Origin: a virus
Length of the DNA: 64,000 nt
IMG/VR virus record: IMGVR_UViG_3300048925_000129
Direction: 5' to 3' (one strand)
Of the stretch, positions 1,683 to 18,998 are shown piece by piece. The position numbers and the translations under genes were made by a program. The stretch's first letter is position 1; every line of letters starts with the position of its first letter. A model generated the notes under the pieces. That model saw only the letters and a list, made by a program, of their open reading frames with translations. It was not told the DNA's origin and did not search any database.

Positions 1683-1690
1683 TATATAAT

Positions 1691-2340: not shown

Positions 2341-2357
2341 CTCTTATTTATTTTTAG

Positions 2358-2432
2358 TGGTCTAGGTGGGGATTGAACCCACGTCCTTCTGTTTATGAGA
2401 CAGTTGCTTCGAACCAACCGAGCTCCTAGACC
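2358..2432 (-). tRNA. tRNA-CAT (Met or Ile2)
   Basis: GGTCTAG/CTAGACC acceptor, anticodon loop CTCATAA, T-loop TTCAATC. Confidence 0.85.
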
Positions 2433-2468
2433 TTTTAACCAGGATTAGCTAAGGAATCTTTTCTTATG

Positions 2469-2540
2469 AACCCCCACCAGGAATCGAACCTGAATCGTCT
2501 GTTTAGAAGACAGATGCTCTATCCGTTGAGCTATGAGGGC
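2469..2540 (-). tRNA. tRNA-Arg(TCT)
   Basis: TCTGT-CTTCTAA-ACAGA anticodon arm, canonical D and T loops. Confidence 0.85.
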
Positions 2541-2751
2541 AAGTTTCGGTTGTTATGCAAAGACAACCTGTAGTTTAGCTGGTTTAATCAAGAAAAACCA
2601 ATTACTCATCTCGGAGGTTTAAAAACTTCACTGTTTTAAAGATGGGGAGAGGTCGTGACTACCAAACCTTATTCCATTCTTACTACCTACATACCTCAGG
2701 GCAGTTAAGAGAAAGTGATTTAACGTTACACTTATACACGGCTCTGCATTG

Positions 2752-2823
2752 TCCCGATACTAGGAATCGAACCTAGATTTCAACTTTATGAGAGTTGTGT
2801 AATAGCCACTATACCATATCGGA
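2752..2823 (-). tRNA. tRNA-CAT (Met or Ile2)
   Basis: CAACT-CTCATAA-AGTTG anticodon arm, CTAGG-TTCGATT-CCTAG T arm. Confidence 0.9.
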
Positions 2824-3014
2824 AGTTGAGGGCGTTAAGTTAATCAGACTAATACCCTCTTTTAATTTCTTGCTTCCATTTTTTAGGGAAAAGGAAGCAC
2901 CCTGCAACCAAACCTAAGTTTTTTGAACACAAAAACTCATAAAGTACCTCGTATGCCCAGTGTTATTTAACCTTACACACCTCACTCCAAGGCTGAACTA
3001 TTTCAAGGGATTTG

Positions 3015-3087
3015 TAGCTCCACCAGGACTCGAACCTGGATCTTCAGCTTATGAGACTGACGAGGTAACCTATTTCTCCATGTAGCA
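3015..3087 (-). tRNA. tRNA-CAT, initiator-like
   Basis: TCAGT-CTCATAA-GCTGA arm, mismatched 1:72 pair, fMet-like TGGAG...TCGTC D region. Confidence 0.8.
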
Positions 3088-3094
3088 ATATTAG

Positions 3095-3174
3095 AGCAGA
3101 GTTGTGGAATCGAACCACTAGTCTAGACTACCTTACTCTTCACGACTAAGACCCTGCCTTCGGGTGACTCTGCT
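3095..3174 (-). ncRNA. Atypical tRNA-like element (8-bp acceptor, long variable hairpin, non-canonical anticodon loop)
   Basis: AGCAGAGT/ACTCTGCT, D arm ACCC/GGGT, T-loop TTCGATT, anticodon region CGTGAAG lacks U33. Confidence 0.55.
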
Positions 3175-3185
3175 TATAAAAACTA

Positions 3186-3434
3186 CTACTCTATAAGAGC
3201 AGTAGTTGTATTGTTTTCTTTAATAATTTTTAATGACCCTTTAAACTGGAGGCTGCCTTTAGTATGACTACTGTCAGGGGTCTCCTTTGTTGTGAAGCCG
3301 ACTCTGGAATCTAGATGATCCACATAGTAAGTTTCACCTTTACACTTCACTACCCAGGCAGGAATGCTCTGGTCCTCGTTGTGTTTCTTATTGAAGTGGA
3401 ATACTATTCTGGAGCTATTACAAATTGTCTCCAT
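3186..3434 (-). CDS. Hypothetical protein
   Basis: 82-aa ORF, translationally coupled to the upstream gene, ends TAG TAG. Confidence 0.7.
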   Translation of the reverse strand: METICNSSRIVFHFNKKHNEDQSIPAWVVKCKGETYYVDHLDSRVGFTTKETPDSSHTKGSLQFKGSLKIIKENNTTTALIE

Positions 3435-3684
3435 ACTTCTCTACAAGTTTAGTCACATAAGATTCAGAAATTTCCTTTCTCTTTGTTGTTTGTCTCTCCT
3501 TTCCTTTCAGAACCGAGTAAGCCTGGAAGAGATGTCTAAGCTCATACCTGTTAGTTTCTCTTTCCGAAACTGGATTTGTAGATGTTCTTTCTCCTGTAAA
3601 GGATTGTTTAATCTGAGGCTTAAGAGTTTTCTGTGCCTCTGATAATGTTTTTATTGCTTGTCTGATTGTTTCAAATTTTTTCAT
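3418..3684 (-). CDS. Hypothetical basic protein
   Basis: 88-aa ORF with A-rich start, directly after the PTH2-like gene. Confidence 0.7.
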   Translation of the reverse strand: MKKFETIRQAIKTLSEAQKTLKPQIKQSFTGERTSTNPVSERETNRYELRHLFQAYSVLKGKERQTTKRKEISESYVTKLVEKYGDNL

Positions 3685-3691
3685 GATAATT

Positions 3692-4042
3692 TTAATTTAA
3701 TGTTAGATTAAGATTTTTAAATAAAGACTTGTGTTGAGATCTTGAGATTGCTTCGATGGCTACTGCCGTCATTTGGTTTCCTATGTCAGGTTCCAGGAAC
3801 TTATGATACTTGATTTCCAAGTCATCCAGTTTATGGAGTATCCTTTCAATTTTGGATTCCGAAGCTTCAAGACAACACAGGTAGTTACTACCCATCTGCC
3901 ACTGCTTAAATTCATCGTTAAACTTGACTGCAAAATCAGCCAATGCATGTGCACTTTGCACAACTTTGTAACCTGGAGTTAAATCATCTCTGGTGATGAT
4001 TGTCATAAACTCGTTACCTGTCTAAATACCTGTCTTTGTCAT
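3692..4042 (-). CDS. Peptidyl-tRNA hydrolase type 2-like protein; probable start at 4042 with in-frame TAG at 4022-4024 (alternative start 4006)
   Basis: IITRDDLTPGYKVVQSAHALADF...FLEPDIGNQMTAVAI resembles phage PTH2-like proteins; upstream in-frame MTKTGI*TGNEF. Confidence 0.75.
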
Positions 4043-4061
4043 AATATAAAACTTTTGGTTG

Positions 4062-4134
4062 TTCTTTCAACGGGATTCGAACCCGTGACACACAGTTTTA
4101 GAGACTGCTGTTCTAACCACTGAACTATGAAAGA
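4062..4134 (-). tRNA. Amber suppressor tRNA (anticodon CTA)
   Basis: TCTTTCA/TGAAAGA acceptor, GCAGT-CTCTAAA-ACTGT anticodon arm, ACGGG-TTCGAAT-CCCGT T arm. Confidence 0.9.
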
Positions 4135-4140
4135 ATATTG

Positions 4141-4203
4141 CTTCGTATAAGGACTCGAACCTCACCTGCTAACTGCCGTGCTCCCAATTACACCATCACG
4201 AAA
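4141..4203 (-). pseudogene. tRNA-like element with collapsed anticodon arm
   Basis: TTCGT/ACGAA acceptor, D arm TGGTGTAATTGGGAGCAC, T arm AGG-TTCGAGT-CCT, only ~15 nt between D and T arms. Confidence 0.55.
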
Positions 4204-4296
4204 AACTTATCTCTCCCACACGGCAATGCAGTTAAAATAAGATTGATATAAGTTAAGGAGGCTTGCCGACCAACCTTATTTGCCATCAATTTTTTG

Positions 4297-4368
4297 TAGT
4301 CCATAGGGGAGTCGAACCCCTCTTCTTAGATCGAAAATCTAATGTCCTAACCGATAGACGAATGGACC
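4297..4368 (-). tRNA. tRNA-Glu(TTC)
   Basis: TTAGA-TTTTCGA-TCTAA arm, AGGGG-TTCGACT-CCCCT T arm. Confidence 0.9.
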
Positions 4369-4373
4369 AAGTA

Positions 4374-5194
4374 CAAGCTACAGGTCTTGTTAGTTAATAT
4401 TCCACACCGAGTGCCTCAACCAAGGCTTTGGGAATCGAACCCTCTTCGTCTTTTTTCCAAATAAAAATGTTTTAAACTTTGTATTTGCTGTGTGTAGCTT
4501 TATCAAATTACCGTTTGATGTTAAAATTCCAATTTTTAGCTTTGTTTAATTTGCTGTAGGTAATTTTGTCAGATTGCATACTAAACGTGTGTTTGATTAA
4601 AATTCAAGTGTTTGTTTAATTTGCTGTTAGCAATCTTTTCAGAATAGTATGTTTGAGGATTTGAACCCCTTGAACTGTTTATGAGACAATTGTTTTAACC
4701 AAATTTTTTAGATTTGCTGTAACTATTCTTATCAAGTTTCTATTGTTTTTGGACTATTGCTCTACCAACTGAGCTACTGAAATCCTAAGACTCCAGAAGG
4801 GACTCGAACCCTTGACCCACAGTGTTACATTCCTAAATTTGCTGTTAGAAACTTTATCAAAACTCATTTTTTGTTTTATACGTTGTACTAACCACTATAC
4901 TATCTCCCAAATTTTTCTAGATTAACTTTGTTGGGAGAGGAGGAGTCGAACCTCCGTCTACGGCTCTGAATGCATAACTTTGTATTTGCTGTATGAGTTT
5001 TTATATATTCAGGTTACTTGGGGACGATAAAAGGTCCCGTTAAGTTAAGATTTAAGTCATTCTAGGACTTTCCTATACAATTTTACTTCTCACATACAGG
5101 ACCCGAAGTGTAGAGATGTCTGTGCTTTTGCATTCTACAGTTTCCGTTATTTGAATCAATTATAGTTGTGTGTTGTATTTGCTGATAGTAACCT
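4374..5194 (-). ncRNA. Tandem array of 7 Y-RNA-like ncRNA units
   Basis: Units 4375-4500, 4505-4566, 4571-4636, 4641-4729, 4734-4854, 4859-5001, 5011-5194; each closed by a different 7-9 bp terminal stem with (A/U)CAGCAAAU just inside the 5' strand; adjacent to the TROVE-like gene. Confidence 0.8.
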
Positions 5195-5207
5195 TATAAT
5201 AACACTG

Positions 5208-5239
5208 CAAAGATATGAAAACTTTTTGAGATATGCAAA
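5208..5239 (-). promoter_or_regulatory. Promoter driving the ncRNA array
   Basis: TTTG-N20-TATCTTTG ending 14 nt before the first unit. Confidence 0.8.
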
Positions 5240-5276
5240 TCTTGCAGTGTTAAATTTATGTTAAAGGATTTTCACC

Positions 5277-6953
5277 TTATAGAACTTCTACTCTTTGAAT
5301 CAGTTCCTGAGACAATGCCTCTCTCACTAATTCGGCTGCTGTTTTAATCTTGGTGTTAGTCAAGAATCCTACAGTGGTAGCAGAGTACCCACTGAAGTAG
5401 AATACGTTTTGAACGTCTCCGTAAGTTTCGAACTTCTCTCCAGTCCCTCTACCATAGTATCCTGACTGTAGGTTCCAAAGAACGATTACGAAGCTATCTA
5501 CATACTCTTTAGAGAACCCAGCTCTTCTCAAAGTTTCCTTTGCAGTTTCAACGTTAGTTTTACCTAATTGGCTTGGGTTAAATTCACTATCAGATATACA
5601 TAGGATTCCCGATGGGAAATCTTGTTCTGAAACTCCACTCTGTTTCAACCTAACGAATAGGTTAATTACTGATTGGAAGTTAGTACCCCCAATGTAAGAA
5701 GAGTGATCATTCTTCCATTTGTCTACTGGAGTTTGACCTTTCCAGGTATGCATCTGAGCATCAGAGTTGAACTCGATCCATGCATTTGCAAACTTACCAG
5801 TTAAGAACTCAGAGAAGTAAAGGGCAAGTGCTTTACCAATATCGTAGCAGCTCATCTTAGTTCCAGTAGCTACACTACTCATTGAACCAGATGTATCTCT
5901 TACAACAATTAGATTAGTCTGTCCAGATTCACCACCTTTTTGAACAAGAGTAGTAAACTGCTTGTTAATGGTTTCAACTTCATTAGGAGTAACTGATCTT
6001 CTAGACTGCTTACCTAGACCTTCGAATAACTCGTGAACGAATCCAGTATACTTCACCTCCTTAGTTTCTGGAGCCTTGATCCACTCTGCATACTTGTCAG
6101 AAAGTTTCTGGTTAAATAGGAACTTACCTTGAACAAGTTTTGAAAGAGCTCTACCATGAACTTTGTTGAAGTCAATTCTATCAAATTGCTTTGTAGAGAT
6201 TAGCTTCTGCCATTCATGAGCTGTACCAGAAGTTTTTAACTTTCTGTACTGCTTGTAAGTAGAACCTGCATTTTCTTTAGTACCAAACACAAGTGAGCAG
6301 ATCCACTTTGCAATCATTGTATCAGCCTGAGCTTCTACAGTTTTACAAGATGATTTAGCCTTGATTTGTGGCAAATACTTCTTAATTAAATCACTGGTGT
6401 TTGAATTTTCTAATCCTGAAAGGATAAGTTCACCAAACTTTTTCCAGTTTAATTTTCTTCCGTTCCAACCGTGATGAACAAGGTCATAAGAAAGCATCGT
6501 GAAGATATCTTTCCATGATCCTGCTGAGATCATCAATCCTACGTTAGCCCAGAAAGTTTTTTCATCCTTGAAGTGTAACCATAAGAATCTCATGATACCT
6601 TCATGTCTTAGCTCACCTCCTTTTTGTGATTCGGCAGTCATAGTACCATCTTGATACATTGTCTGTCTTGAGATCATTCTTAAGAAGATAGAGAAAGCTA
6701 CTGCATCCCACTTATCATCTGCCCATAACATTTCGGCATCTCTGGTGATATCCTGGAAAGATCTTGGTGCTTTGAATTTACCCATAACTCCGAACTGGTC
6801 AACTAATGTTGAACCTGTTGAGGAATATTTTAGGGCTCCGTTCCCTGATAGTGTTTCTGCTCCTTTCTTTAAAGATGCATTAACGAATGCAGATGTTGCT
6901 TGTGTGTTTTTTGGAGTTACCTCGAATAAACTTTTTTGTTTGCTGTCGAACAT
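5277..6953 (-). CDS. TROVE-like/vWA protein (DUF2828 family, Ro60-related)
   Basis: N-terminal SGNGALKYSSTG..LVDQF, GSWKD, KKYLP, YRKL motifs; C-terminal vWA MIDAS DTSGS, GGTNF, ISDSEF, IVLWN. Confidence 0.8.
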   Translation of the reverse strand: MFDSKQKSLFEVTPKNTQATSAFVNASLKKGAETLSGNGALKYSSTGSTLVDQFGVMGKFKAPRSFQDITRDAEMLWADDKWDAVAFSIFLRMISRQTMYQDGTMTAESQKGGELRHEGIMRFLWLHFKDEKTFWANVGLMISAGSWKDIFTMLSYDLVHHGWNGRKLNWKKFGELILSGLENSNTSDLIKKYLPQIKAKSSCKTVEAQADTMIAKWICSLVFGTKENAGSTYKQYRKLKTSGTAHEWQKLISTKQFDRIDFNKVHGRALSKLVQGKFLFNQKLSDKYAEWIKAPETKEVKYTGFVHELFEGLGKQSRRSVTPNEVETINKQFTTLVQKGGESGQTNLIVVRDTSGSMSSVATGTKMSCYDIGKALALYFSEFLTGKFANAWIEFNSDAQMHTWKGQTPVDKWKNDHSSYIGGTNFQSVINLFVRLKQSGVSEQDFPSGILCISDSEFNPSQLGKTNVETAKETLRRAGFSKEYVDSFVIVLWNLQSGYYGRGTGEKFETYGDVQNVFYFSGYSATTVGFLTNTKIKTAAELVREALSQELIQRVEVL

Positions 6954-6982
6954 CTTATTATGATTTTTGGTTAATTTTTGAT

Positions 6983-7279
6983 TTAGTTTTTACCATTTCC
7001 CTTTTCTGGAAATTTATGAATTCTAATTGGAAGAAATCCTAATTCTTCACATAAGTTTCTTAAAACTTCTAACTTAGAATCATCTCCTTTTTCTATTTTC
7101 CCATCAAACAAAGCTTCAATTACTTCTCCATCTCCTAAGGAAATAAATCCATTTTGAATATGTCTTTCAGCTAGAAGTGAATATGCTTGAATTTTTGCCT
7201 GAAACTTTACCTGCTCTTTGTTAGCTTCTAATTGAATTCTAATTAGTTCTGCTTGTCTATAAAACTCTTGATCTGTCAT
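6983..7279 (-). CDS. Hypothetical protein (start revised to MTDQEF)
   Basis: Track start at 7309 lies inside the promoter at 7299-7330. Confidence 0.6.
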   Translation of the reverse strand: MTDQEFYRQAELIRIQLEANKEQVKFQAKIQAYSLLAERHIQNGFISLGDGEVIEALFDGKIEKGDDSKLEVLRNLCEELGFLPIRIHKFPEKGNGKN

Positions 7280-7298
7280 TTGTTTAATTATTACTTTG

Positions 7299-7330
7299 CA
7301 AAGATACAAAAAGTTTTCTTAATATGCAAA
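7299..7330 (-). promoter_or_regulatory. Bacteroidota-type promoter for the TROVE operon
   Basis: TTTG-N20-TATCTTTG. Confidence 0.75.
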
Positions 7331-7498
7331 TTTATTTTGTTAAAGTTTTGTTAAAGTTTTTCGATTATAGAGAAGACAATAAAAATTATGTTCTCAACTG
7401 GTATGTTATAAATCCATCTCATAGTATGTAAAATAAAAAATGTTGCTAATATAAGACTTCACATACTAACAACATTCAATCTACCTTCTTGTAGTTTG

Positions 7499-7570
7499 TG
7501 TGATAACGGGACTCGAACCCTGACTACCAATTTCACAGGTTGGCATGCTAACCTTTACATCATTATCACC
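7499..7570 (-). tRNA. tRNA-His(GTG)
   Basis: CCAAC-CTGTGAA-ATTGG arm, T-loop TTCGAGT. Confidence 0.85.
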
Positions 7571-7627
7571 ATATAAAGTATCTTTTATTTAAGGGGTTGA
7601 AAGATACAAAACTATCCCTAATTTTAT

Positions 7628-8020
7628 TTAGTAGTTCACTACTCTTACTGGTTTACCAAGATTTTTCATGAGGTCTATCATATTTTTTGTTCCTCTACTC
7701 TTGCCATCCCAAAAAGCTATAAGTACATCTCCTACTTCGGACATCTCTTCATTCCTAATTGGACCAGCAGCATTCCCATACATTTTCCAGTCGGCTGGCA
7801 TAGGAATAACATTGTGATTACTCTCAGCAGCATAAAGCTCTCCAAGTCCATCTGCTCCAAAGACATTAATACCATCTGATGTGGTAAAAGTCTTGGTTCC
7901 CGTGGAGCATCTTCCTGAAACTATTTCGATGTCTCTATGATTCCTAAGGAAATTATCACATTTTGTTTTAACGAGACGATAATCATTCAGATCTCTGCCT
8001 CCTGCTATTATGACTTTCAT
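7628..8020 (-). CDS. SLOG-family protein (DUF2493/YspA-like)
   Basis: KVIIAGGRD, IVSG, GADGLGE, AAGPIRNEEM, AFWDGKSRGTKNMI. Confidence 0.85.
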   Translation of the reverse strand: MKVIIAGGRDLNDYRLVKTKCDNFLRNHRDIEIVSGRCSTGTKTFTTSDGINVFGADGLGELYAAESNHNVIPMPADWKMYGNAAGPIRNEEMSEVGDVLIAFWDGKSRGTKNMIDLMKNLGKPVRVVNY

Positions 8021-8442
8021 TAGGCTTCAGCAATTGCTTGCTTGATCTCATCAGCTTTATTAATACCTTTACACTCCTTGTTGATCATACCAAATAGTTT
8101 ACCTTCGTGGATGCCTGGATTATCTTCTTTAGTTTGTTTAACCAAAGACACTAATTCAGAATAGGTTAAGGCCTGAGGTAAGTACGACTCAAGAACTTTT
8201 AATTCTGATTCTTCCTTAACAGCAAGATCTATTCTTTTAGAAAGAGTGTAGGCATCAATAGATTGATTCCTTTTCTTAATTTCCCTAGAGATAAGTTTCG
8301 TAACTTCATCTTCAGTTAAATCTCTTCTTAAAGCTATTTTCTCGTTGTCTACTACACTTATTAAAAGTGACAGGGTTGTTTTTGCTACTATATCTTTTGC
8401 CTTTAAAGCTTTTACGTAGTCTTGTCTGATCTTTGATTCCAT
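8020..8442 (-). CDS. YqeY/GatB-domain tRNA-binding protein
   Basis: KALKAKD...EIKKRNQSIDAY..SKRIDLAVKEESELKVLESYLPQ. Confidence 0.85.
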   Translation of the reverse strand: MESKIRQDYVKALKAKDIVAKTTLSLLISVVDNEKIALRRDLTEDEVTKLISREIKKRNQSIDAYTLSKRIDLAVKEESELKVLESYLPQALTYSELVSLVKQTKEDNPGIHEGKLFGMINKECKGINKADEIKQAIAEA

Positions 8443-8469
8443 TTTACTTTTGTTTTAATTATTGATTAG

Positions 8470-8540
8470 TGCAGGTAGGGAGAATCGAACTCCCGACTAA
8501 ACATTGGAAGTGTCCCGTGATACCACTTCACCACACCTGC
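8470..8540 (-). tRNA. tRNA-Gly(TCC); 5' half overlaps the HNH gene 3' end
   Basis: GCAGGTG/TACCTGC acceptor, loop CTTCCAA, GGGAG-TTCGATT-CTCCC T arm. Confidence 0.85.
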
Positions 8541-8958
8541 CTATTCTTTCCTGATAATGTAAGTCCCTATGACAGTTGGAACATAAAACCTCACATTTCT
8601 CTATTTCTTTTAATGCTCTAGATTTAGAACCACTCTTAAACAGAGCTCCAACTTCAGTATCCTTCTCGTCTGGATTAATATGGTGAAAATCTAAGACCCA
8701 CCATCTATCCTCTGGACATCTATTACATTTTAAATTTTTCTTTATTTCGAAAAATTCTTCCATAGAAGTTTGTCTATAAGCTTTAGATTTAGAAATATAT
8801 TTAGCTTTGTTAGCTTCATAATGTTTCTTTCTATATTCTTTCTGACATTCTCTACATTGCCACTGTAGAATTGTTTTTGTTTTCAATTTTTTAGTAGCAA
8901 AAAACTCTTCTGTCTCTGGTAATTCTTTTTTACAAGAACCACATATCTTCGTACACAT
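8497..8958 (-). CDS. HNH homing-type endonuclease with N-terminal Zn finger
   Basis: CGSC...CREC; CNRC...LDFHHINP.EK...EIEKCEVLCSNCHRDLH; start revised to MCTKIC, downstream of promoter 8974-9005. Confidence 0.85.
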   Translation of the reverse strand: MCTKICGSCKKELPETEEFFATKKLKTKTILQWQCRECQKEYRKKHYEANKAKYISKSKAYRQTSMEEFFEIKKNLKCNRCPEDRWWVLDFHHINPDEKDTEVGALFKSGSKSRALKEIEKCEVLCSNCHRDLHYQERIGRCGEVVSRDTSNV

Positions 8959-8973
8959 ATTTATTAATTTATA

Positions 8974-9005
8974 CAAAGATACAAAAAAGGTATCGAACTT
9001 CCAAA
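8974..9005 (-). promoter_or_regulatory. Promoter of the HNH cassette
   Basis: TTTG-N20-TATCTTTG. Confidence 0.7.
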
Positions 9006-9022
9006 CACATAAAATTAATTAT

Positions 9023-9065
9023 TAGGCTTGGAAGGCTAGAGTATTAACCACTATACGATACCTGC
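9023..9065 (-). pseudogene. Orphan 5' half of tRNA-Gly(TCC)
   Basis: GCAGGTA TCGTATAGTGGTTAATAC T CTAGC CTTCCAA GC, then AT-rich sequence with no T arm. Confidence 0.8.
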
Positions 9066-9160
9066 AATTATAATAGACCATCATACTCTCACTAATGTGA
9101 TTCGTGCACCTGATATACCTTGGGTATATAAGTAGATAGTTTTAGGGGCAACTATTATTG

Positions 9161-9234
9161 TCTCCAGTATAGGATTTGAACCTATGACAACTTCCTTATC
9201 AGAGAAGTGCTCTACCAGACTGAGCTAACTGGAG
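9161..9234 (-). tRNA. tRNA-Ile(GAT)
   Basis: CTCCAGT/ACTGGAG acceptor, loop CTGATAA. Confidence 0.9.
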
Positions 9235-9259
9235 TTAAACCAGGTTTCCCTGGTATGTT

Positions 9260-9496
9260 TTATTTTTTATAGTGAATGTAAGATTTCACTCCTTTCATGG
9301 CTGCATCTTCTACAAGCCTCAAAGCTAAAGTTTTCAAACTCAAAATTTCAGAAGCTTCGTCTGGATTTAAATCTGCTGTCACATTATCATTAATGTAGTC
9401 GAAAAGCTCAATAGCTCTTTGTTTAATTCCATCAATTACTCCTTCACCTGAAGGGTTGAAATCACCAATTCTTTTTTGTCCTAAAGTTTTTTCCAT
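9260..9496 (-). CDS. Acb2/Tad1-like helical-hairpin anti-defence sponge candidate
   Basis: TLGQKRI..FNPSG...IDGIKQRAIEL...LALRLVEDAAM.GVK pattern. Confidence 0.55.
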   Translation of the reverse strand: MEKTLGQKRIGDFNPSGEGVIDGIKQRAIELFDYINDNVTADLNPDEASEILSLKTLALRLVEDAAMKGVKSYIHYKK

Positions 9497-10257
9497 TATA
9501 TATCTTTTCTTGTTACAATAAAATCTTCTATTGAGTTATCCTCTTCTAAAATTAGCTTACCAAATCCTGGAGCTATAATAAAATGTGTCCTATCATTTTG
9601 GTCTTCAGCAGGAATAATATCTGAAAAACCTGATTTTTTTGAAATTTCCATTTGGTCTTTAGTAAGTAGATAGATAAGTTCCATTAACTTCAAGTGGTTA
9701 GTTTTAACTTCCATTACTCTTTCTGTCCAAGGAATATGTCTTCCAGTATAATACACAAAGTGAATATGATTCCTTAATGTACCTCTTATATCAGTTTCAT
9801 CTGGATAAGGTTCTGTATTAAATCCATGTGAATGCCACATGTATTCACCTTTATCATTGGTTTCTTTATACTCAACATATAATTTACCCGTTTCACCAGC
9901 ATAGTACCTTTTCAAAACTTCTTCATGTTGTTTAGAAACATCAAATTGTACAGTATCAAATAAGTTTCCAGTAGAAGAATATTCTCCTAATACAAAACCA
10001 ATTCTTATCCATTTATCTGTACTTTGGATATCTTCTTTTGCTAAATAGACATCAGGATCAGTTGTTACTAACACAACTGCTTTAGCATCTTCAGTGACTA
10101 TAAATTGAACACCGTACATGGCATCATCTGTATAAACAGTATTTGGATCACTGAATATTCCTTTGAATATCTCTATTGGAATTCTAGATCCATCAATACC
10201 TAAGTAAATACTTGGGTCTCTTCCTTCTTTTTCTTTGTAAAATCTTTCTCGTATCAT
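9496..10257 (-). CDS. Hypothetical protein
   Basis: 253-aa ORF coupled to both neighbours. Confidence 0.75.
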   Translation of the reverse strand: MIRERFYKEKEGRDPSIYLGIDGSRIPIEIFKGIFSDPNTVYTDDAMYGVQFIVTEDAKAVVLVTTDPDVYLAKEDIQSTDKWIRIGFVLGEYSSTGNLFDTVQFDVSKQHEEVLKRYYAGETGKLYVEYKETNDKGEYMWHSHGFNTEPYPDETDIRGTLRNHIHFVYYTGRHIPWTERVMEVKTNHLKLMELIYLLTKDQMEISKKSGFSDIIPAEDQNDRTHFIIAPGFGKLILEEDNSIEDFIVTRKDI

Positions 10258-10463
10258 TTGTTAAAAATTTCATCTGAAAATAAATCAAGAATCCTATCTG
10301 GTTCTCCCCAATCGTGACCTCCATATTTGTGCACTTTAAACTCTTCAAAAGAGGCTATATTATAACCCTCTTGACCATGAATTACTTTTAGGTAAATAAA
10401 TCTTAATCTATACCACCAGTAAACCCTGAATTTATCATACTCATCTAATTCCTGAAATTTCAT
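10254..10463 (-). CDS. Hypothetical protein
   Basis: 69-aa ORF immediately after promoter-like motif 10468-10499. Confidence 0.6.
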   Translation of the reverse strand: MKFQELDEYDKFRVYWWYRLRFIYLKVIHGQEGYNIASFEEFKVHKYGGHDWGEPDRILDLFSDEIFNK

Positions 10464-10521
10464 TTTACAAATTTAAGAAACTTTTTTGACATGTGCAAGT
10501 TTTTAACAAACTTTAACATTG

Positions 10522-10593
10522 TAGACCTACTAGGATTCGAACCTAGATACCCTGAGTCAAAGTCAGGTGTACTAACCGTTGTACGATAGGTCT
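10522..10593 (-). tRNA. tRNA-Gln(TTG)
   Basis: CCTGA-CTTTGAC-TCAGG arm. Confidence 0.9.
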
Positions 10594-10596
10594 GTT

Positions 10597-10670
10597 TGGA
10601 GCCCAGAACAGGATTCGAACCTGTGTACCTAGTTTTGCAGACTAGTGTCTAACCACTCGACCACCTGGGC
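10597..10670 (-). tRNA. tRNA-Cys(GCA)
   Basis: CTAGT-CTGCAAA-ACTAG arm, U73, encoded CCA. Confidence 0.9.
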
Positions 10671-10676
10671 AGCTTG

Positions 10677-10748
10677 AGCCTCTATCAGGAATCGAACCCG
10701 AATCTCAAGATTACAAATCATGTATAATAGCCGTTATACTACAGAGGC
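10677..10748 (-). tRNA. tRNA-Thr(TGT)
   Basis: GCCTCTG/TAGAGGC acceptor, loop TTTGTAA. Confidence 0.88.
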
Positions 10749-10752
10749 AAAT

Positions 10753-10793
10753 AAAAAATCCCTTGCAAAGTCGGTTGAGGATTCACAAGGGAT
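10753..10793 (-). terminator. Attenuator terminator B, directly upstream of tRNA-Thr
   Basis: ATCCCTTGTGAA/TTTGCAAGGGAT 12-bp stem plus T-tract. Confidence 0.85.
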
Positions 10794-10825
10794 AGAAATT
10801 TATAAAAAATAAATTTGTGTATTGT

Positions 10826-10915
10826 CTATTCATAAATGACATCAGACAAAATCATCCCTGTTGAGTGCCCCTGGCAGCCAATAGTTATCTCGATATGTTG
10901 TCTAGTTGTTGTCAT
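10826..10915 (-). CDS. Leader peptide B (29 aa): MTTTRQHIEITIGCQGHSTGMILSDVIYE*
   Basis: A-rich start context, lies between promoter and terminator; first 17 codons are only M,T,R,Q,H,I,E,G,C. Confidence 0.8.
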   Translation of the reverse strand: MTTTRQHIEITIGCQGHSTGMILSDVIYE

Positions 10916-10935
10916 TGTTTAAATTTTTACTTCTG

Positions 10936-10967
10936 CAAATATACAAAATGTTTTTGACATATGCAAA
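10936..10967 (-). promoter_or_regulatory. Promoter for leader B / tRNA block B
   Basis: TTTG-N20-TATATTTG. Confidence 0.8.
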
Positions 10968-10998
10968 TTTCTAAAAGAAATTATTAGTTAAAGTTTTG

Positions 10999-11220
10999 TT
11001 AAAAATAATAATACCAGTATTCATCGTGGAATAGCTGCATTTCTTGTTTTAAATTAATCTGCTTTTGGTGCTTATACATCCTATTGCCCTCACAAATGTT
11101 GCATCCACCATTATGTTCACAGAATTTAGATGGTCTTGTTCTGCTTCCATCTCTTACTGTTTTTAAGTGGTTAACACCCATCCATCTATGCTGAGATGGT
11201 TTTCTATAAGTTCTACTCAT
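10999..11220 (-). CDS. Small Cys/His-rich hypothetical protein
   Basis: MSRTYRK...CEHNGGCNICEGNR. Confidence 0.7.
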   Translation of the reverse strand: MSRTYRKPSQHRWMGVNHLKTVRDGSRTRPSKFCEHNGGCNICEGNRMYKHQKQINLKQEMQLFHDEYWYYYF

Positions 11221-11236
11221 AAAAATAATTTAAGTG

Positions 11237-11320
11237 AGGAAGACAGAGAGCACGATTCCCAGACCCTGAGGTCCCATTTGTTTAGCAAACAAAGTCTATA
11301 CCCCGATAGATTTAACTTCC
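11237..11320 (-). tRNA. tRNA-Ser(GCT), somewhat degenerate
   Basis: TTTGT-TTGCTAA-ACAAA arm, long variable arm, atypical T-loop. Confidence 0.7.
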
Positions 11321-11328
11321 ATAATATG

Positions 11329-11409
11329 AGGAGGAAGTGGGACTCGAACTCTCAGACCCAGAGGGTCACAGTTTTCAAGACTGCTGCAATACCATTCTGC
11401 CAATCCTCC
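11329..11409 (-). tRNA. tRNA-Ser(TGA), chimeric-looking T stem
   Basis: GCAGT-CTTGAAA-ACTGT arm, GACCC/GGGTC variable arm, mismatched T stem GAGAG/CCCAC. Confidence 0.8.
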
Positions 11410-11415
11410 GAATTG

Positions 11416-11772
11416 TTATTTTACAAAGATAGCCGTCTTACCAATAACTTCGTCTATATTTAGGTAGACAATTCTATCTTCTTTTTGTATATAGATGGCT
11501 AAAATGTCAAACTCATCAACTTCTATTTTATAGATAGTATTAGTATTTTTGTTTGATCTAATTCTTCTTAGCTCTATGTTATATTTGCCCAAACTATTTG
11601 GATCTTTGATAGTTGATTTAACAGATACTCTTTTAGACTCTCCATCTTTATAGATGAACAAATCAAAAGGTGCTTTACCACTCACTTGATTAAAAATGTG
11701 ATAACCTTTACTAGCTAAATCAGCCATTACTTTAATCTCACCTAATTGAGAATACATTGTTTTATTATCCAT
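11416..11772 (-). CDS. PD-(D/E)XK homing-type endonuclease (I-Ssp6803I / PDDEXK_5-like)
   Basis: GEIKVMADL..KGY.IF....GKAPFDLFIYKDG..KRVSVKST...FDILAIY. Confidence 0.75.
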   Translation of the reverse strand: MDNKTMYSQLGEIKVMADLASKGYHIFNQVSGKAPFDLFIYKDGESKRVSVKSTIKDPNSLGKYNIELRRIRSNKNTNTIYKIEVDEFDILAIYIQKEDRIVYLNIDEVIGKTAIFVK

Positions 11773-11799
11773 AGCTCTTCATCCAGCCAGATTCCCTCC
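11773..11799 (-). pseudogene. Probable orphan 5' fragment of a tRNA-Ser
   Basis: GGAGGGAATCTGGCTGGATGAAGAGCT directly abuts the endonuclease ATG; GGAGGGA pairs with the 3' acceptor strand TTCCTCC of the downstream tRNA-Ser. Confidence 0.55.
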
Positions 11800-11856
11800 A
11801 ATTAAAAGCCCCAGAAATTGTGCATGCAAGCAAAGGCATCTGGGGGATTGATATTT

Positions 11857-12369
11857 TTATTTTAGCAAGTACTGCTCCCAATCTTTAGGAATTGTACCTA
11901 GATGTTTTATAAACATCAAGTAATGTGGTCTTTTAGGATTTGGATGTTCCTTACCCCACTCTTCTATTGTTAAGTCATTTTTTTCCGAGTTACACGGTTT
12001 ACATGCAGTAACTAAGTTGTCCCAAGTGTCTTTTCCACCTTTCGATTTAGGAATAACGTGGTCGATAGTCATTGCTCTTATTTCGTCTTCTCCACAATAC
12101 ACACAAGTGTAGTTATCTCTTTTGAAAACATTGTCCCTGTTACAAGGAACTTTGTGGATATCCAGGTTAATGAACCTTGGAACCCTGATAACTGATGGTC
12201 TGAAGATCTCTAAATCTGGATTAACCAAACCAAACTTCTCTGGGTGTTCATGCAGGATGTCTGCATTACCCTTAAGAGAAACTACATAAGCTCTTTCAGA
12301 TGTCACAATTTGTCTGGGTAAGTACTGTGAATCTAACACCAAGCACTTACGAAAATCTACTTTTTTCAT
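11857..12369 (-). CDS. HNH endonuclease (McrA-like); start revised to MKKVDF
   Basis: CLVLDSQY, NVFKRDNYTCVYCG, TIDHVIPKSKGG..TWDNLVTACKPCNSEK; track extension overlaps tRNA-Leu. Confidence 0.85.
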   Translation of the reverse strand: MKKVDFRKCLVLDSQYLPRQIVTSERAYVVSLKGNADILHEHPEKFGLVNPDLEIFRPSVIRVPRFINLDIHKVPCNRDNVFKRDNYTCVYCGEDEIRAMTIDHVIPKSKGGKDTWDNLVTACKPCNSEKNDLTIEEWGKEHPNPKRPHYLMFIKHLGTIPKDWEQYLLK

Positions 12370-12389
12370 TGTTACACTTTTTTGATTAG

Positions 12390-12470
12390 TACTGATAGTA
12401 GGACTCGAACCTACACCCCTTTCGGGAACAGTTTCTAAGACTGCCGTGTCTACCATTCCACCATACCAGC
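12390..12470 (-). tRNA. tRNA-Leu(TAG)
   Basis: GCAGT-CTTAGAA-ACTGT arm, long variable arm. Confidence 0.9.
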
Positions 12471-12586
12471 ATTTCCCCTAATTGCTTTTTGATACCAACC
12501 ACTGTCAGGCTATGAACCTTCATAAGTCAAGGGGATCGAACCCTTAGTTCATCAATATCCTACTACTTCAATTTGGATAGGATTTG

Positions 12587-12666
12587 TACTCCCACTGGGA
12601 CTCGAACCCAGACCCCGAAGGATAAGATTTTAAGTCTTACGTGTCTACCAATTCCACCATGAGAGC
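12587..12666 (-). tRNA. tRNA-Leu(TAA)
   Basis: TAAGA-CTTAAAA-TCTTA arm. Confidence 0.9.
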
Positions 12667-12672
12667 ATTTTG

Positions 12673-12745
12673 TGGACCGACAGGGGATCGAACCCTGGTT
12701 TAAAGTTTGCAAAACTTTGGTTTTAGCCAATTAAACTACCAGCCC
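12673..12745 (-). tRNA. tRNA-Ala(TGC)
   Basis: Loop TTTGCAA, G3:U70 pair present. Confidence 0.9.
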
Positions 12746-12747
12746 AA

Positions 12748-13023
12748 TTATTTATTATCTTTGTTTCTTCCAATGTGATACCCATCACAGAAGACACATT
12801 TGTAAGTGCTAAAGTGCACTCCTTTCTTTTTCCCCATACTAATTGCTGACTTCAAAGCAGTCTCCTTGGTATTATACATAACCTTAGGCTTACCTGTATC
12901 TGCCCTCTGATGAGAATTTTTATGGAACATTCCCCAGGCATTTCTGGTAATAAAGAAATTTTTAATGAATCTCTTGAGTGGAAGCTGATCCTTCAATGCT
13001 ATTACTATGTTCTTTAGTTTCAT
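12748..13023 (-). CDS. Small Zn-ribbon protein
   Basis: YKCVFCDGYHIG. Confidence 0.7.
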   Translation of the reverse strand: MKLKNIVIALKDQLPLKRFIKNFFITRNAWGMFHKNSHQRADTGKPKVMYNTKETALKSAISMGKKKGVHFSTYKCVFCDGYHIGRNKDNK

Positions 13024-13231
13024 ACTCTCCTTTTATAATTCTTACTATGTCCTTTGGTGATACTACTGTGCATCGTTTCATTACATCTTGAATTCTACCT
13101 TTAGGTATATCGTAATGATTTTTATGAAACCAGCAAATGTTGATCCCAAGGTCTCTAGCCATTTTATGCAGATTCTGTTTAGAATATGGCAAGCAGACTA
13201 GATGTCTTTTGTTATCACAAATATATTTCAT
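12962..13231 (-). CDS. DUF4031-like protein
   Basis: HLV......LHKMARDLGI...WFH..HYDIP. Confidence 0.65.
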   Translation of the reverse strand: MKYICDNKRHLVCLPYSKQNLHKMARDLGINICWFHKNHYDIPKGRIQDVMKRCTVVSPKDIVRIIKGEYETKEHSNSIEGSASTQEIH

Positions 13232-13233
13232 TG

Positions 13234-13304
13234 TACCTCGTAAAGGAATCGAACCTTTTCCACTTGTATGTAAGACAAGGAAGCTACCGTTACATCAACG
13301 AGGC
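13234..13304 (-). tRNA. tRNA-Val(TAC)
   Basis: CTTGT-CTTACAT-ACAAG arm. Confidence 0.88.
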
Positions 13305-13365
13305 ATACAACTATGTGAGTCCTAACTAAACTTATCTCACTTTTACTGGAACCCGTAGGTAGTTT

Positions 13366-13563
13366 TTAAATGTTGTTATTCCAGGTTCTATATCCTGTGG
13401 AAGGGTCAGTATCGACTTTCTTTCCAACAAATGTTATCTCCCAGAATTCTTCACCCAACTCTAGTAGTTGAACAAAATTTCCTTTCTTGGCATGTTTAGA
13501 ATCAATCCAGCATTGTGTGAATTCTTCTTTGCCTTTTTTCTTAAATGTGCATTGTGCCCACAT
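13366..13563 (-). CDS. Hypothetical protein
   Basis: 65-aa ORF with A-rich start between tRNAs. Confidence 0.65.
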   Translation of the reverse strand: MWAQCTFKKKGKEEFTQCWIDSKHAKKGNFVQLLELGEEFWEITFVGKKVDTDPSTGYRTWNNNI

Positions 13564-13580
13564 AACTTTAATTTTTACTG

Positions 13581-13654
13581 TGCCCCCAGAAGGACTCGAA
13601 CCTTCAGTCTACATCTTAAAAGGATGTTGCTTTAACCAATTCAGCTATAGGAGC
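13581..13654 (-). tRNA. tRNA-Lys(TTT)
   Basis: ACATC-CTTTTAA-GATGT arm. Confidence 0.9.
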
Positions 13655-13766
13655 TTTTCTTTCGATTTAGAGCAGAAATCGAACCCGAAACATATACTGC
13701 CTAGATTTCTTAATCCCCGAAAACGACCTTGCCTCAAGGCTTACAGCTTTAACTGATGGATTTTTG

Positions 13767-13838
13767 TCGGGTAGACAGGACTCGAACCTGCATCCTCTTG
13801 CTTCCAATGCAAGTAATCGACCATTGATATACTACCCG
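13767..13838 (-). tRNA. tRNA-Pro(TGG)
   Basis: CGGGTAG/CTACCCG acceptor, loop ATTGGAA. Confidence 0.9.
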
Positions 13839-13845
13839 TAATATG

Positions 13846-13927
13846 TGAGGCATGTAGGATTCGAACCTACTCAGCAATTGCAACTGTTTTACAGACAGTC
13901 TCAGCTCTCCAACTCTGACGATACCCC
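13846..13927 (-). tRNA. tRNA-Tyr(GTA)
   Basis: ACTGT-CTGTAAA-ACAGT arm, long variable region. Confidence 0.9.
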
Positions 13928-13935
13928 GTTTAAAT

Positions 13936-14013
13936 TGGTGGGTCCACTGGGAATCGAACCCAGTCCTACAGTTTTTCAGACTATCGTGCAGACCTTAATT
14001 ACACCTTAGACCC
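13936..14013 (-). tRNA. tRNA-Phe(GAA)
   Basis: ATAGT-CTGAAAA-ACTGT arm, encoded CCA. Confidence 0.9.
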
Positions 14014-14065
14014 AATCGTACAGTTACGTTTCCAAATAGGAAAGAGGCTTGACTGTACATCATTG

Positions 14066-14138
14066 AGGGAGAAGTGGGATTCGAACCCACACAAATCGAC
14101 TTAACAGGTCGGTGCTCTACCATTACAGCTATTCTCCC
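14066..14138 (-). tRNA. tRNA-Asn(GTT)
   Basis: CCGAC-CTGTTAA-GTCGA arm. Confidence 0.9.
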
Positions 14139-14151
14139 GAATAAAAATTTG

Positions 14152-14223
14152 CACGTCCCACAGGATTCGAACCCGTACCAAAAGTTTTGGAGACTCCTAT
14201 GCTACCATTAACACCAGAGACGT
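14152..14223 (-). tRNA. tRNA-Trp(CCA)
   Basis: GGAGT-CTCCAAA-ACTTT arm, G73. Confidence 0.88.
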
Positions 14224-14230
14224 ATGTTTG

Positions 14231-14306
14231 CCGTGATAGAGGGATTCGAACCCTCGTTTTTGAAGAGTGACAGTCTAAATCCCCATCCAATGGAGCATAT
14301 ACCACG
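14231..14306 (-). tRNA. tRNA-Asp(GTC), irregular D arm
   Basis: Loop CTGTCAC, GAGGG-TTCGAAT-CCCTC T arm. Confidence 0.75.
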
Positions 14307-14314
14307 AGTTATAT

Positions 14315-14352
14315 AAAAATAAAAATCCCTACGAATTTTACTAAGTAGGGAT
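14315..14352 (-). terminator. Attenuator terminator A, directly upstream of tRNA-Asp
   Basis: ATCCCTAC/GTAGGGAT stem followed by TTTTATTTTT. Confidence 0.85.
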
Positions 14353-14385
14353 ATTAATCAAAAAAACTAAAACTATGAACCAAAA

Positions 14386-14502
14386 TCATGTTTGTGTGCT
14401 TTTACTTAATCCTACTATTGTAGAGCTATTATCCCATAACTTATCTGCCCCCAGTACACTAGGGTTAAAGGCAAACGAATAAAAGTTATAAGAGTTTTTC
14501 AT
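14386..14502 (-). CDS. Leader peptide A (38 aa): MKNSYNFYSFAFNPSVLGADKLWDNSSTIVGLSKSTQT*
   Basis: A-rich start, lies between promoter and terminator; codons 2-27 contain all 11 amino acids of the downstream tRNA block and only one other (Gly). Confidence 0.82.
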   Translation of the reverse strand: MKNSYNFYSFAFNPSVLGADKLWDNSSTIVGLSKSTQT

Positions 14503-14520
14503 TGTATATTTTTTACTTTG

Positions 14521-14621
14521 CAAAGATATGAAATTAATTTCACATATGCAAATTTAATTGGTTAAATTTTTGTTAAATTTTTAGTAATGCAAAGATAGGA
14601 AATAAAATCCAAAAAAGCAAA
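14521..14621 (-). promoter_or_regulatory. Two tandem promoters for leader A / tRNA block A
   Basis: TTTG-N20-TATCTTTG at 14521-14552 and 14590-14621. Confidence 0.8.
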
Positions 14622-14637
14622 TACATAAAACTTTTTA

Positions 14638-14847
14638 TTAAAAGTATTCTTCATCAATGAAGAAATCCTCTTCATCTTCCTCCTCATCAATAAGGTGTAG
14701 TAGAGACTCATCTAAGTTTGAGTAAATACTACTGAACAAGGTTTTATCCTTATCCCAAATTCCAGTAGCTTCTGGTAAAACTGATTCCAGTTCACCTGAG
14801 TCCAGGAATGTATCATACAGATCTCTAAGTTTTGGGTTGTTCTCCAT
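14638..14847 (-). CDS. Small acidic hypothetical protein
   Basis: 69-aa ORF with D/E-rich tail. Confidence 0.7.
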   Translation of the reverse strand: MENNPKLRDLYDTFLDSGELESVLPEATGIWDKDKTLFSSIYSNLDESLLHLIDEEEDEEDFFIDEEYF

Positions 14848-15088
14848 AACCTTTCTTTTTTAAATCATTAATTATAAATAGATACTCATCTTCCATTTTA
14901 GTAGAAGGTTCCTCATCTAATCTATAATTTATCACTTCTTTCCCACTTCCATTATCAAGGACTGTTTTGACTAAGAATTTAGGGGGTTTGGTAGCAGTTT
15001 TTACGTGCAATACACTTTTAACCCCCTTCATTTTTCTTATTACATTTAGCCAATGATTATGGAAAGCCATATCATATAAGCCTTTCAT
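14825..15088 (-). CDS. Hypothetical protein
   Basis: 87-aa ORF in operon. Confidence 0.65.
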   Translation of the reverse strand: MKGLYDMAFHNHWLNVIRKMKGVKSVLHVKTATKPPKFLVKTVLDNGSGKEVINYRLDEEPSTKMEDEYLFIINDLKKKGYGEQPKT

Positions 15089-15099
15089 ACTTCAAATTT

Positions 15100-15912
15100 T
15101 TAGAATGGACTATCATCATCTTCTGCTACTGCATTGGCTGCAAAAGGATTTTCACCTGTTGTAGTTGCTGTAACTGGAGTTTGTGTAGCCACTGGTGTTG
15201 TAGTTGGTTGAGTTTCTTCAGGAGCAGCTTCTGCCCATTCTTTGTAAAACTCAGATTGGTATACATTACCAGCTTTGAAATCTTCGTATCTCTTTAACTC
15301 ATACATTAGAACTTTAGACAGGAAAGTATCCTGAGCTTTGTAGTCCATTGTTTTTTGGCTTGGATTGATTGGGTCCTGTTCAACTATGAACATAGGAACG
15401 TTTCCTTTCTCTCCGAACTTTAATGAGAATTTGATTGGTTGATCTTTGTCTTGTCCTTCCTCTTGCTTATATCTGAAGTAAAGAATCTTGTCAACATATC
15501 CTCTTTGATTTTTATCCCTGTTTGAAGAGATGATAATCGACTTAGAGTAATCTAAGCTAGGAAGGATAGCAATTAGTTTCTTAACTTCATCATTTAATCC
15601 ACCTTTTATACTTTTAAGTGGTAGCTGAATTACATCAACTCCCGAAGGATCTTCATCAGATTGTACTGACAATTCTACGTAGCTAACTTTTCCTTTTGGG
15701 AATGTTTTCTCAGTAATTGCAAGGTATGAAACCTTACCGTAGTCTGTACTCTTATAAGGCTTTTGATAAGTCTTTCTTTCGTTTGCAGTACCTGCATCTA
15801 GAACGATCTCATTAAATCCTTCTTTAGGCTCTTTTGAGCTCTCATATAGTTCCCCTTTAGAGTTGATTCTTAGAAATGTAAAATTTCTCCCTGTTCCGAA
15901 TTCTTTTGCCAT
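15100..15912 (-). CDS. Probable single-stranded DNA-binding protein
   Basis: P/T-rich linker and acidic C-terminal tip AEDDDSPF; own promoter 15951-15982; near recA. Confidence 0.65.
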   Translation of the reverse strand: MAKEFGTGRNFTFLRINSKGELYESSKEPKEGFNEIVLDAGTANERKTYQKPYKSTDYGKVSYLAITEKTFPKGKVSYVELSVQSDEDPSGVDVIQLPLKSIKGGLNDEVKKLIAILPSLDYSKSIIISSNRDKNQRGYVDKILYFRYKQEEGQDKDQPIKFSLKFGEKGNVPMFIVEQDPINPSQKTMDYKAQDTFLSKVLMYELKRYEDFKAGNVYQSEFYKEWAEAAPEETQPTTTPVATQTPVTATTTGENPFAANAVAEDDDSPF

Positions 15913-15998
15913 GTTGTAAACTTTTTATTAATTAGTTATTTATTAGATTGCAAATGTACAACTTTATTTTGACATATGCAAATACATAAAAGTTAATT

Positions 15999-16929: not shown

Positions 16930-16935
16930 TTTGTG

Positions 16936-17901: not shown

Positions 17902-17902
17902 A

Positions 17903-18980: not shown

Positions 18981-18998
18981 TGTGTGTGTGGTTTTGTG

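Follow-up and report, generated by a model that had tools for sequence, protein, structure and literature searches.

Why should a phage place a short open reading frame (ORF) and an apparent intrinsic terminator between a promoter and its tRNA genes? The question is raised by a locus in an IMG/VR virus record (IMGVR_UViG_3300048925_000129), of which a stretch of 64,000 nucleotides, called the window here, was analyzed. The window is phage-like, with minus-strand transcription in its left arm (1-19000), where 22 tRNA genes are detected by ARAGORN with default settings and three more (Asp, Phe, and Ser-GCU) appear with relaxed settings or Rfam. On this strand, a promoter (10966-10936) is followed by a 29-codon ORF, a spacer, a hairpin, the run U6-A-U3, and the genes for tRNA-Thr, tRNA-Cys, and tRNA-Gln (Table 1). 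The answer that we hold to be probable is that the locus is a ribosome-mediated (leader-peptide) transcription attenuator, which senses the decoding of the codons listed in the ORF and gates transcription of the tRNAs. Such an element calls for an ORF that adjoins a promoter and lies upstream of the regulated genes, for codons in that ORF cognate to what those genes supply, for a terminator between the ORF and the first gene, and for an antiterminator that excludes the terminator and overlaps the ORF. The layout satisfies the first of these.

Table 1. Coordinates of the features of the attenuator locus, its surroundings, and its homologues (window positions unless a contig is named).
Feature	Position	Strand	Description
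Promoter B	10936..10966	-	Extended -33 motif 10966-10951 and TAnnTTTG-type -7 box 10943-10936
Leader ORF B	10826..10915	-	29 codons and TAG stop
Listing ("roll-call") codons 2-17 of leader B	10865..10912	-	Only T, R, Q, H, I, E, G, C
Antiterminator 5' strand	10853..10864	-	Core AGGGAUG 10859-10853, codons 19-21
Small A/U hairpin	10796..10816	-	In the 32-nt spacer between stop codon and terminator; from MFE structures
Intrinsic terminator	10749..10793	-	Hairpin 10793-10758, 14 pairs, one bulge, dG ~-14 kcal/mol, then U6-A-U3
tRNA-Thr(UGU), tRNA-Cys(GCA), tRNA-Gln(UUG)	10521..10748	-	Directly 3' of the terminator; tRNA-Thr from 10748
Remainder of tRNA block B	2357..9234	-	Ile(GAU), Gly(UCC), His(GUG), Glu(UUC), amber suppressor (CUA), three CAU tRNAs, and Arg(UCU), mixed with protein genes, two more promoters (10498, 5238), and terminator-like hairpins
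Sister attenuator A	14303..14551	-	Promoter, 38-codon leader 14502-14386, hairpin and U-run, then tRNA-Asp
Leader B homologue	L127:6465-6554		Same place in locus
Leader B homologue	L131:6524-6613		Same place in locus
Leader B homologue	L153:14079-14168		Before tRNA-Thr
Leader B homologue	L145:7555-7632		Before tRNA-Thr
Leader B homologue	L150:6357-6434		Before tRNA-Thr
Leader B homologue	L159:12677-12769		Before tRNA-Thr

The promoter motif with its -7 box is of the Bacteroidota promoter type, and transcription is inferred to start near 10931. The 16-nt motif has minus-strand copies at 5238, 10498, 10966, 15981, and 18685 and a plus-strand copy at 49437, each followed by a -7 box and then an ORF downstream; 11 matches were counted against 3.4 expected, and the motif is conserved in relatives. 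The next promoter after the tRNA-Thr, tRNA-Cys, and tRNA-Gln genes is the one at 10498, and the space between the U-run (10758-10749) and tRNA-Thr (10748) is too small to hold another. These single-copy, conserved tRNAs have no promoter of their own and are therefore transcribed only through the terminator, which must thus be read through at least sometimes. The window DNA is present in root metagenomes, and one metatranscriptome contig spans 10510-10733, where these tRNAs lie; the search covered assembled contigs only, which are blind to transcript starts, ends, and read-through.

The composition of the ORF follows what the downstream genes supply. Residues 1 to 17 consist of exactly M, T, R, Q, H, I, E, G, and C, the nine amino acids of the tRNAs that come after it (T, C, Q, I, G, H, E, M, and R, with an amber suppressor in addition), and all eight non-Met residues of the set are already present within codons 2 to 14. 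The initial annotation had described a Thr/Ile/Gln/His/Gly/Cys/Arg/Glu leader at this site, and the first 17 residues of the ORF at 10915-10826 (minus strand) are indeed as it quoted them. For a random peptide with the phage's own composition, the probability of showing the full eight-residue set before any outsider is 8.7e-7, and the statistic requires no cutoff. By this set-match measure, the ORF, designated leader B, and a second one, leader A, both rank first among the 362 ATG ORFs of the window. The agreement extends to individual codons: the claimed use of all three Ile codons is borne out by the presence of ATC, ATA, and ATT, the Arg codon is AGA, matching the downstream tRNA-Arg(TCT) at 2468-2540, and the three CAT tRNAs said to lie downstream were found at 2357-3087, with mutually different sequences. 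That one of these carries a lysidine modification and reads ATA is an inference.

The match has its limits. Each amino acid is represented by only 1 to 4 codons, a weak point, as this implies a low sensitivity to mild starvation compared with classical leaders. There are also exceptions to the match: N, F, L, or K is found at positions 2 to 3 in some B leaders, and Arg(ACG) and Pro(CGG), both accessory tRNAs, go unlisted. Attenuator B directly gates only the Thr, Cys, and Gln tRNAs, although its list also includes Glu, Met, and Arg, with genes as far as 8 kb away, and the internal promoters (10498 and 5238) and hairpins (7440, 4205, and 3182) of block B count against simple gating. Strong hairpins with U-runs were seen elsewhere in the tRNA arm at 7440, 4205, 3182, and 1696 (minus strand), and sites of this kind adjoin tRNAs, lying after the His tRNA, before the suppressor tRNA, and before a tRNA-like gene. 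This suggests that block B is subdivided by several leaky or conditional stops.

Leader A, the ORF of the sister attenuator upstream, is composed in the same manner. The tRNAs between leader A and leader B are those for D, W, N, F, Y, P, K, V, A, L, and S, and residues 2 to 27 of leader A are these eleven block A amino acids and one Gly (P = 7.6e-5, with one outsider allowed), such that the two leaders together partition all 20 amino acids. Substitutions in leader A are 9 synonymous versus 2 nonsynonymous, and 10 of 13 base changes fall at third positions, from which it follows that the frame is read as codons. The exceptions in this leader are an invariant Gly18 and a Thr in some of its homologues. 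That the leader ORFs are translated rests on evolutionary evidence only, namely this third-position bias and the set-preserving changes described below, and no ribosome profiling is at hand.

Two phages in IMG/VR of about 160 kb, G001 and the L131 contig, are syntenic with the window; G001 shows about 85 to 91% nucleotide identity to it, and the neighboring proteins of L131 are 48 to 89% identical. A profile built from three leader A peptides retrieved ten small proteins among 1.8 billion representatives, and a second search raised the family to more than 45 members, on whose contigs the order is again promoter, leader A, hairpin with U-run, and tRNA-Asp. Leader B is kept in six further phages, seven with the window, and the layout of promoter, short ORF, hairpin with U-run, and first tRNA is conserved. 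An initiator-like tRNA-Met gene stands between promoter B and the leader B ORF in three phages (L131:6431-6502, L153:13986-14060, and L159:12582-12655), and a place upstream of the terminator makes sense for it, as stalling offers no means of sensing an initiator shortage.

Beyond this family, no close relative of the window was found among INPHARED phages, and IMG/VR searches with the promoter motif, a Ro60-like protein, leader patterns, and a 91-amino-acid protein returned only the two close relatives and unrelated large phages without leaders. A 270-amino-acid neighbor used against JGI metagenomes gave one 1.9-kb contig, which lacks the leader, and a 73-amino-acid neighbor matched only itself and G001 in the protein collection. 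Pattern matches in L135 and L163/L164 were rejected as chance hits rather than leader relatives, and three distant large phages that were examined lack the cassette. Six IMG/VR phages (L022, L026, L027, L032, L062, and L090) carry the exact 16-nt promoter motif and 14 to 20 tRNAs in a different order. In phages of this kind, the promoter lies directly before the first tRNA and there is no leader; in L022, L026, L027, and L032, the four in which the spacing was worked out, the promoter abuts the first tRNA with no leader ORF between them. Phages of this type are a natural comparison group without an attenuator. As the cassette is missing both from phages with another tRNA order and from distant ones, the element is specific to one clade.

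Within that clade, the set of listed amino acids is kept while their order drifts. Between the window and L131, all 5 nonsynonymous changes in codons 1 to 17 of leader B remain inside the nine-residue set, compared with 36% expected from the share of possible single-base nonsynonymous changes that stay in the set; in the 12-codon tail, only 1 of 6 does so. The AGA codon for Arg is found at codon 5, 10, 17, or 18 of leader B in different phages, and Glu and Gly also shift, yet the whole set is listed in every complete leader B.

The phage L159 extends this comparison, as its tRNA-Arg(UCU) is the second gene of block A and no Arg tRNA was seen in its block B. In leader A of this phage, AGA stands in place of the Lys codon of the window, and all 12 block A amino acids are listed with one outsider (P = 7.8e-5). 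The other eight make up the list of its leader B, again with one outsider (P = 1.2e-5), and Arg occurs there only in the tail, inside the antiterminator strand. L159 is an independent replicate with a different partition and the sharpest test of the codon/tRNA match; richness in codons cognate to the supplied tRNAs is a property satisfied in the window and replicated in L159. In L147 and L149, which have an Arg-type leader A, tRNA-Arg(UCU) directly follows tRNA-Asp, and in phages with a Lys-type leader A it does not. Block B is incomplete in L145, L150, and L153, and the Arg switch rests on the one phage that is fully visible, L159. Genes for HNH and PD-(D/E)XK endonucleases lie among the tRNAs of the window (11416-12456, minus strand), and genes of the SegE type (GIY-YIG) lie upstream of leader A in relatives. 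All of these are probably homing endonucleases by which tRNA blocks are shuffled, a possible reason why tRNAs such as Arg(UCU) change block.

Both leaders end in a rare stop codon, TAG in leader B (10826-10828) and TGA in leader A (14386-14388), both on the minus strand; the stops of the long ORFs in the window are 45 TAA, 3 TAG, and 3 TGA (n = 51), and an amber suppressor tRNA is encoded in block B (4061-4134). The TAG of leader B is kept in the four closest phages. The idea that it is itself a sensed codon, for the amber suppressor, was rejected since L145, L150, and L159 use TAA.

Not every conserved feature is accounted for by listing. Residues of about 13 to 23 of leader A (window 14434-14466, minus strand) are nearly invariant in the more than 45 family members, Gly18 included, although Gly is outside the block A set and its tRNA is located in block B; a C-terminal DYDG(I/V) is common to many members. 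The listing model alone does not explain this conservation, for which a role as nascent peptide or RNA is possible. The same residues would be expected if the peptides themselves were functional, for example as microproteins or as nascent-chain arrest peptides acting on the translation apparatus, a function that would constrain their composition. We give this explanation hardly any credence: no order is conserved in leader B, where the positions of Arg, Glu, and Gly vary, most of the residues held invariant in leader A are list members present in single copy, which a listing function would freeze as well, and a functional peptide would leave unexplained why the set tracks the tRNA block.

The hairpin that follows the ORF has the properties of an intrinsic terminator. 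Its U-run reaches to 1 nt before tRNA-Thr, which places a terminator between the ORF and the first gene as an attenuator demands; termination itself has not been measured, and transcript 3' ends near 10753 are inferred without RNA data. The stem is supported by two two-sided covariations (alignment columns 147/169 and 150/166) among three close phages. Across 17 leaders, a terminator of -9 to -17 kcal/mol was present in each case, ending 6 to 18 nt before the tRNA, and terminator sequences differ between lineages. The spacer upstream of the terminator contains a small A/U hairpin whose stem is kept in G001, with a variable loop, and is shifted in L131; it could be a pause element or simply a spacer.

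An alternative pairing is available to the 5' arm of the terminator. The initial annotation had paired UCAACAGGGAUG (10864-10853), within the ORF, with UAUCCCUUGUGA (10794-10783), and both strands are present at these positions. The duplex comprises 3 bp, a 2x2 internal loop, and 7 bp, with a dG of -11.8 kcal/mol. Its two parts fared differently in the comparison. The outer 3 bp (UCA/UGA) are not conserved and are lost in L131. The 7-bp core (columns 74-80 against 145-139) keeps all seven pairs in three close phages and covaries at two of them, column pair 79/140 being U-A, U-A, and G-C and column pair 80/139 being G-U, U-A, and U-G. These changes alter codon 21, which encodes M, I, or S, and this indicates that the tail of leader B follows the RNA pairing and not the peptide sequence. 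A strand complementary to the 5' arm of its own terminator lies just 3' of the listing codons in all 17 leaders, and the analogous strand of distant members is at codons 20 to 25. Shuffle tests on single leaders were weak (P = 0.007 to 0.26). In a cross test, the cognate arm was the best partner for 4 to 5 of 9 ORFs versus about 1 expected, a specificity across lineages that is only partial because all arms are pyrimidine rich and similar. The proposed antiterminator thus excludes the terminator and overlaps the ORF, as required of an attenuator, and its statistical support is moderate, as are the specificity tests.

These results bear on a simpler explanation, in which the ORF is merely a small phage gene of the ordinary kind with a leaky terminator behind it, read-through is constitutive, and the match in composition has no regulatory meaning. 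Terminator-like hairpins before tRNAs also follow normal genes in the window, as at 3182, where the preceding ORF has about 80 codons, the leader is absent from phages that share the promoter motif but not the tRNA order, and leader A has a strongly conserved peptide motif, all of which would fit such a gene. However, the agreement in two leaders greatly exceeds what chance would give and recurs in L159, where the partition is shifted, substitutions preserve the set, and the tail is under the constraint of RNA pairing rather than of the peptide. In light of this, we consider an ordinary gene very unlikely.

The effect of ribosome position was modeled by folding the leader RNA as far as the terminator loop, with the nucleotides under the ribosome masked. 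The 5' arm of the terminator in the window, L153, L145, and L150 is predicted to pair with the ORF at 0.6 to 0.98 when the ribosome is on codons 2 to 12, and at 0.03 to 0.4 when it is on codons 16 to 24 or at the stop. The folding check proposed by the initial annotation thus gave a trp-like response in these phages and failed to do so in G001, L131, and L159, where the modeled ribosome-free and at-stop states do not differ from the stalled state. A 1:2-type (anti-antiterminator) hairpin is predicted in the window and not robustly in those three. In most members, about 24 nt separate the antiterminator strand from the stop codon downstream, and a ribosome terminating there would leave the strand uncovered; it is covered only in L145 and L150.

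The features just described leave room for a different use of the same parts, in which the leader is translated and the terminator is conditional, and either the polarity is the other one, with efficient translation, in place of stalling, opening the terminator as a checkpoint of translation competence, or the regulated step is another, such as the processing or stability of the tRNA precursor. The distant stop codon fits such a variant, as do the models of G001, L131, and L159, in which the antiterminator forms both without a ribosome and with one at the stop and is lost only with codons 16 to 24 covered. Furthermore, the initiator-like tRNA-Met of L131, L153, and L159 is upstream of the leader on the same transcript, so the leader RNA must be processed. 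The other polarity is nevertheless hard to rationalize, as a shortage would switch off the very tRNAs that are short, a positive feedback on failure, and four of six B leaders yield a trp-like polarity in the folding models. A U-run directly after a strong hairpin is, moreover, the signature of termination and not of processing. This variant therefore appears unlikely to us, without being negligible.

Attenuation relieved by slow decoding, the reading that we prefer, would operate as follows. Host RNA polymerase would begin at promoter B, and a ribosome would translate the 29-codon leader, codons 2 to 17 of which hold at least one codon for each amino acid of the downstream tRNAs. Were decoding slow because a tRNA is missing, uncharged, or cleaved, the ribosome would be kept on the 5' part of the ORF, and AGGGAUG would then be free to pair with the 5' arm of the terminator, blocking it and allowing the polymerase to enter tRNA-Thr, tRNA-Cys, tRNA-Gln, and what lies beyond. 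With fast decoding, the ribosome would pass over the strand to the stop codon, the terminator would form, and transcription would end before tRNA-Thr. The phage thus probably makes these tRNAs only when ribosomes read the listed codons slowly. Leaders A and B together would sample all 20 amino acids, with the output of tRNAs matched to the decoding capacity.

The layout, the codon/tRNA match and its conservation, the selection on the reading frame, the terminator, and the covarying alternative pairing on which this scheme builds are observed. That the terminator is conditional, that a stall leads to read-through, that the response is to cognate tRNA supply, and what the physiological trigger might be are inferred in the absence of RNA data, and the polarity in particular rests on regulatory logic and on four of six folding models. 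The attenuator proposed by the initial annotation is nonetheless supported by the conserved layout, by a set that is kept while its order drifts, by the Arg of L159, and by the covarying core of the antiterminator; the comparative evidence is strong, and there is no experimental evidence.

A more far-reaching possibility, which we regard as doubtful, is that the two leaders form a sensor of decoding capacity that polls every amino acid and isoacceptor that the phage can supply and serves as a counterdefense module. The matching half of a tRNA set for 20 amino acids would then be switched on only when host tRNAs fail, the trigger being tRNA cleavage by a host anticodon nuclease or phage-induced decay of host tRNA. 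If true, the module would be an inducible one, going beyond a measure of economy.

The general principle of leader-peptide attenuation has been treated elsewhere (PMC1183508). The phage element shares with trpL, hisL, leuL, thrL, pheL, and the multivalent ilvGMEDA and thr leaders of enterobacteria a promoter-proximal short ORF with cognate codons, an intrinsic terminator, and an alternative helix between the terminator's 5' arm and the 3' region of the ORF, so that the position of the ribosome would decide the outcome. It is unlike them in regulating tRNAs and not enzymes, in belonging to a phage of a Bacteroidota-type host, in listing 8 to 9 amino acids one to four times each where the enterobacterial leaders have runs of one to three, in a stop codon that is usually too far downstream, and in having no conserved 1:2 pause or anti-antiterminator hairpin. 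Expression of pheST, the phenylalanyl-tRNA synthetase genes of E. coli, is an example of leader-peptide attenuation of a component of the translation apparatus. That system is cellular, senses a single amino acid, and has a protein-coding target, whereas the phage element is viral, covers multiple amino acids, and would act on tRNA genes. T-box riboswitches likewise tie tRNA supply to the choice between terminator and antiterminator; however, a T-box binds uncharged tRNA directly and needs no ORF, while the phage frame is under selection at the level of codons. In a cmscan of positions 1-20000 of the window (E <= 1), no Rfam leader family (Thr, His, Leu, Trp, etc.) was found at 10749-10967 and the T-box model had no match. 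The tRNA region of phage T5, considered as a possible case with codon-matched ORFs, was rejected because its annotated small ORFs are ordinary and no terminators precede the tRNAs.

A search of the full-text literature found no account of a leader-peptide attenuator before tRNA genes and, to our knowledge, this form of control has been known for about 50 years only for amino acid and synthetase genes. If the attenuator is real, it extends leader-peptide attenuation to tRNA genes and to viruses, and it would offer an answer to the open question of how phage-borne tRNAs are regulated. It points to phage tRNA sets that are put to use as needed, a matter relevant to current work on tRNA-targeting antiphage defense and viral tRNA rescue. 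The compact design could serve as a natural reporter for identifying limiting codons in a cell, and the family is small and modular, with natural variants in which the lists are swapped, and thus easily tested.

Several other features of the tRNA arm were seen in passing. An odd tRNA-like gene at 3094-3173 (minus strand) directly follows the hairpin and U-run at 3206-3182; its acceptor and T arms are good, its anticodon loop has about 11 nt, Rfam scores it as tRNA-Sec at 26.9 bits, below threshold, and ARAGORN with relaxed settings reports Ser(UGA). A normal tRNA-Ser(UGA) is present in block B of L145, and leader B has UCA as its codon 18. The region 4374-6953 (minus strand) holds a Ro60-like gene, recognized only through a Pfam DUF7788 match, and after it a promoter and an array of structured RNAs, one of which matches YrlA (Y RNA-like) at 4730-4841 below threshold (39 bits against 69). 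A 91-amino-acid protein encoded at 12748-13023 (minus strand) appears to be a tRNA-array-associated protein of unknown function: it is 89 to 96% identical in the close relatives, and counterparts with 52 to 67% identity lie within the tRNA arrays of L141-L143, three distant large phages.
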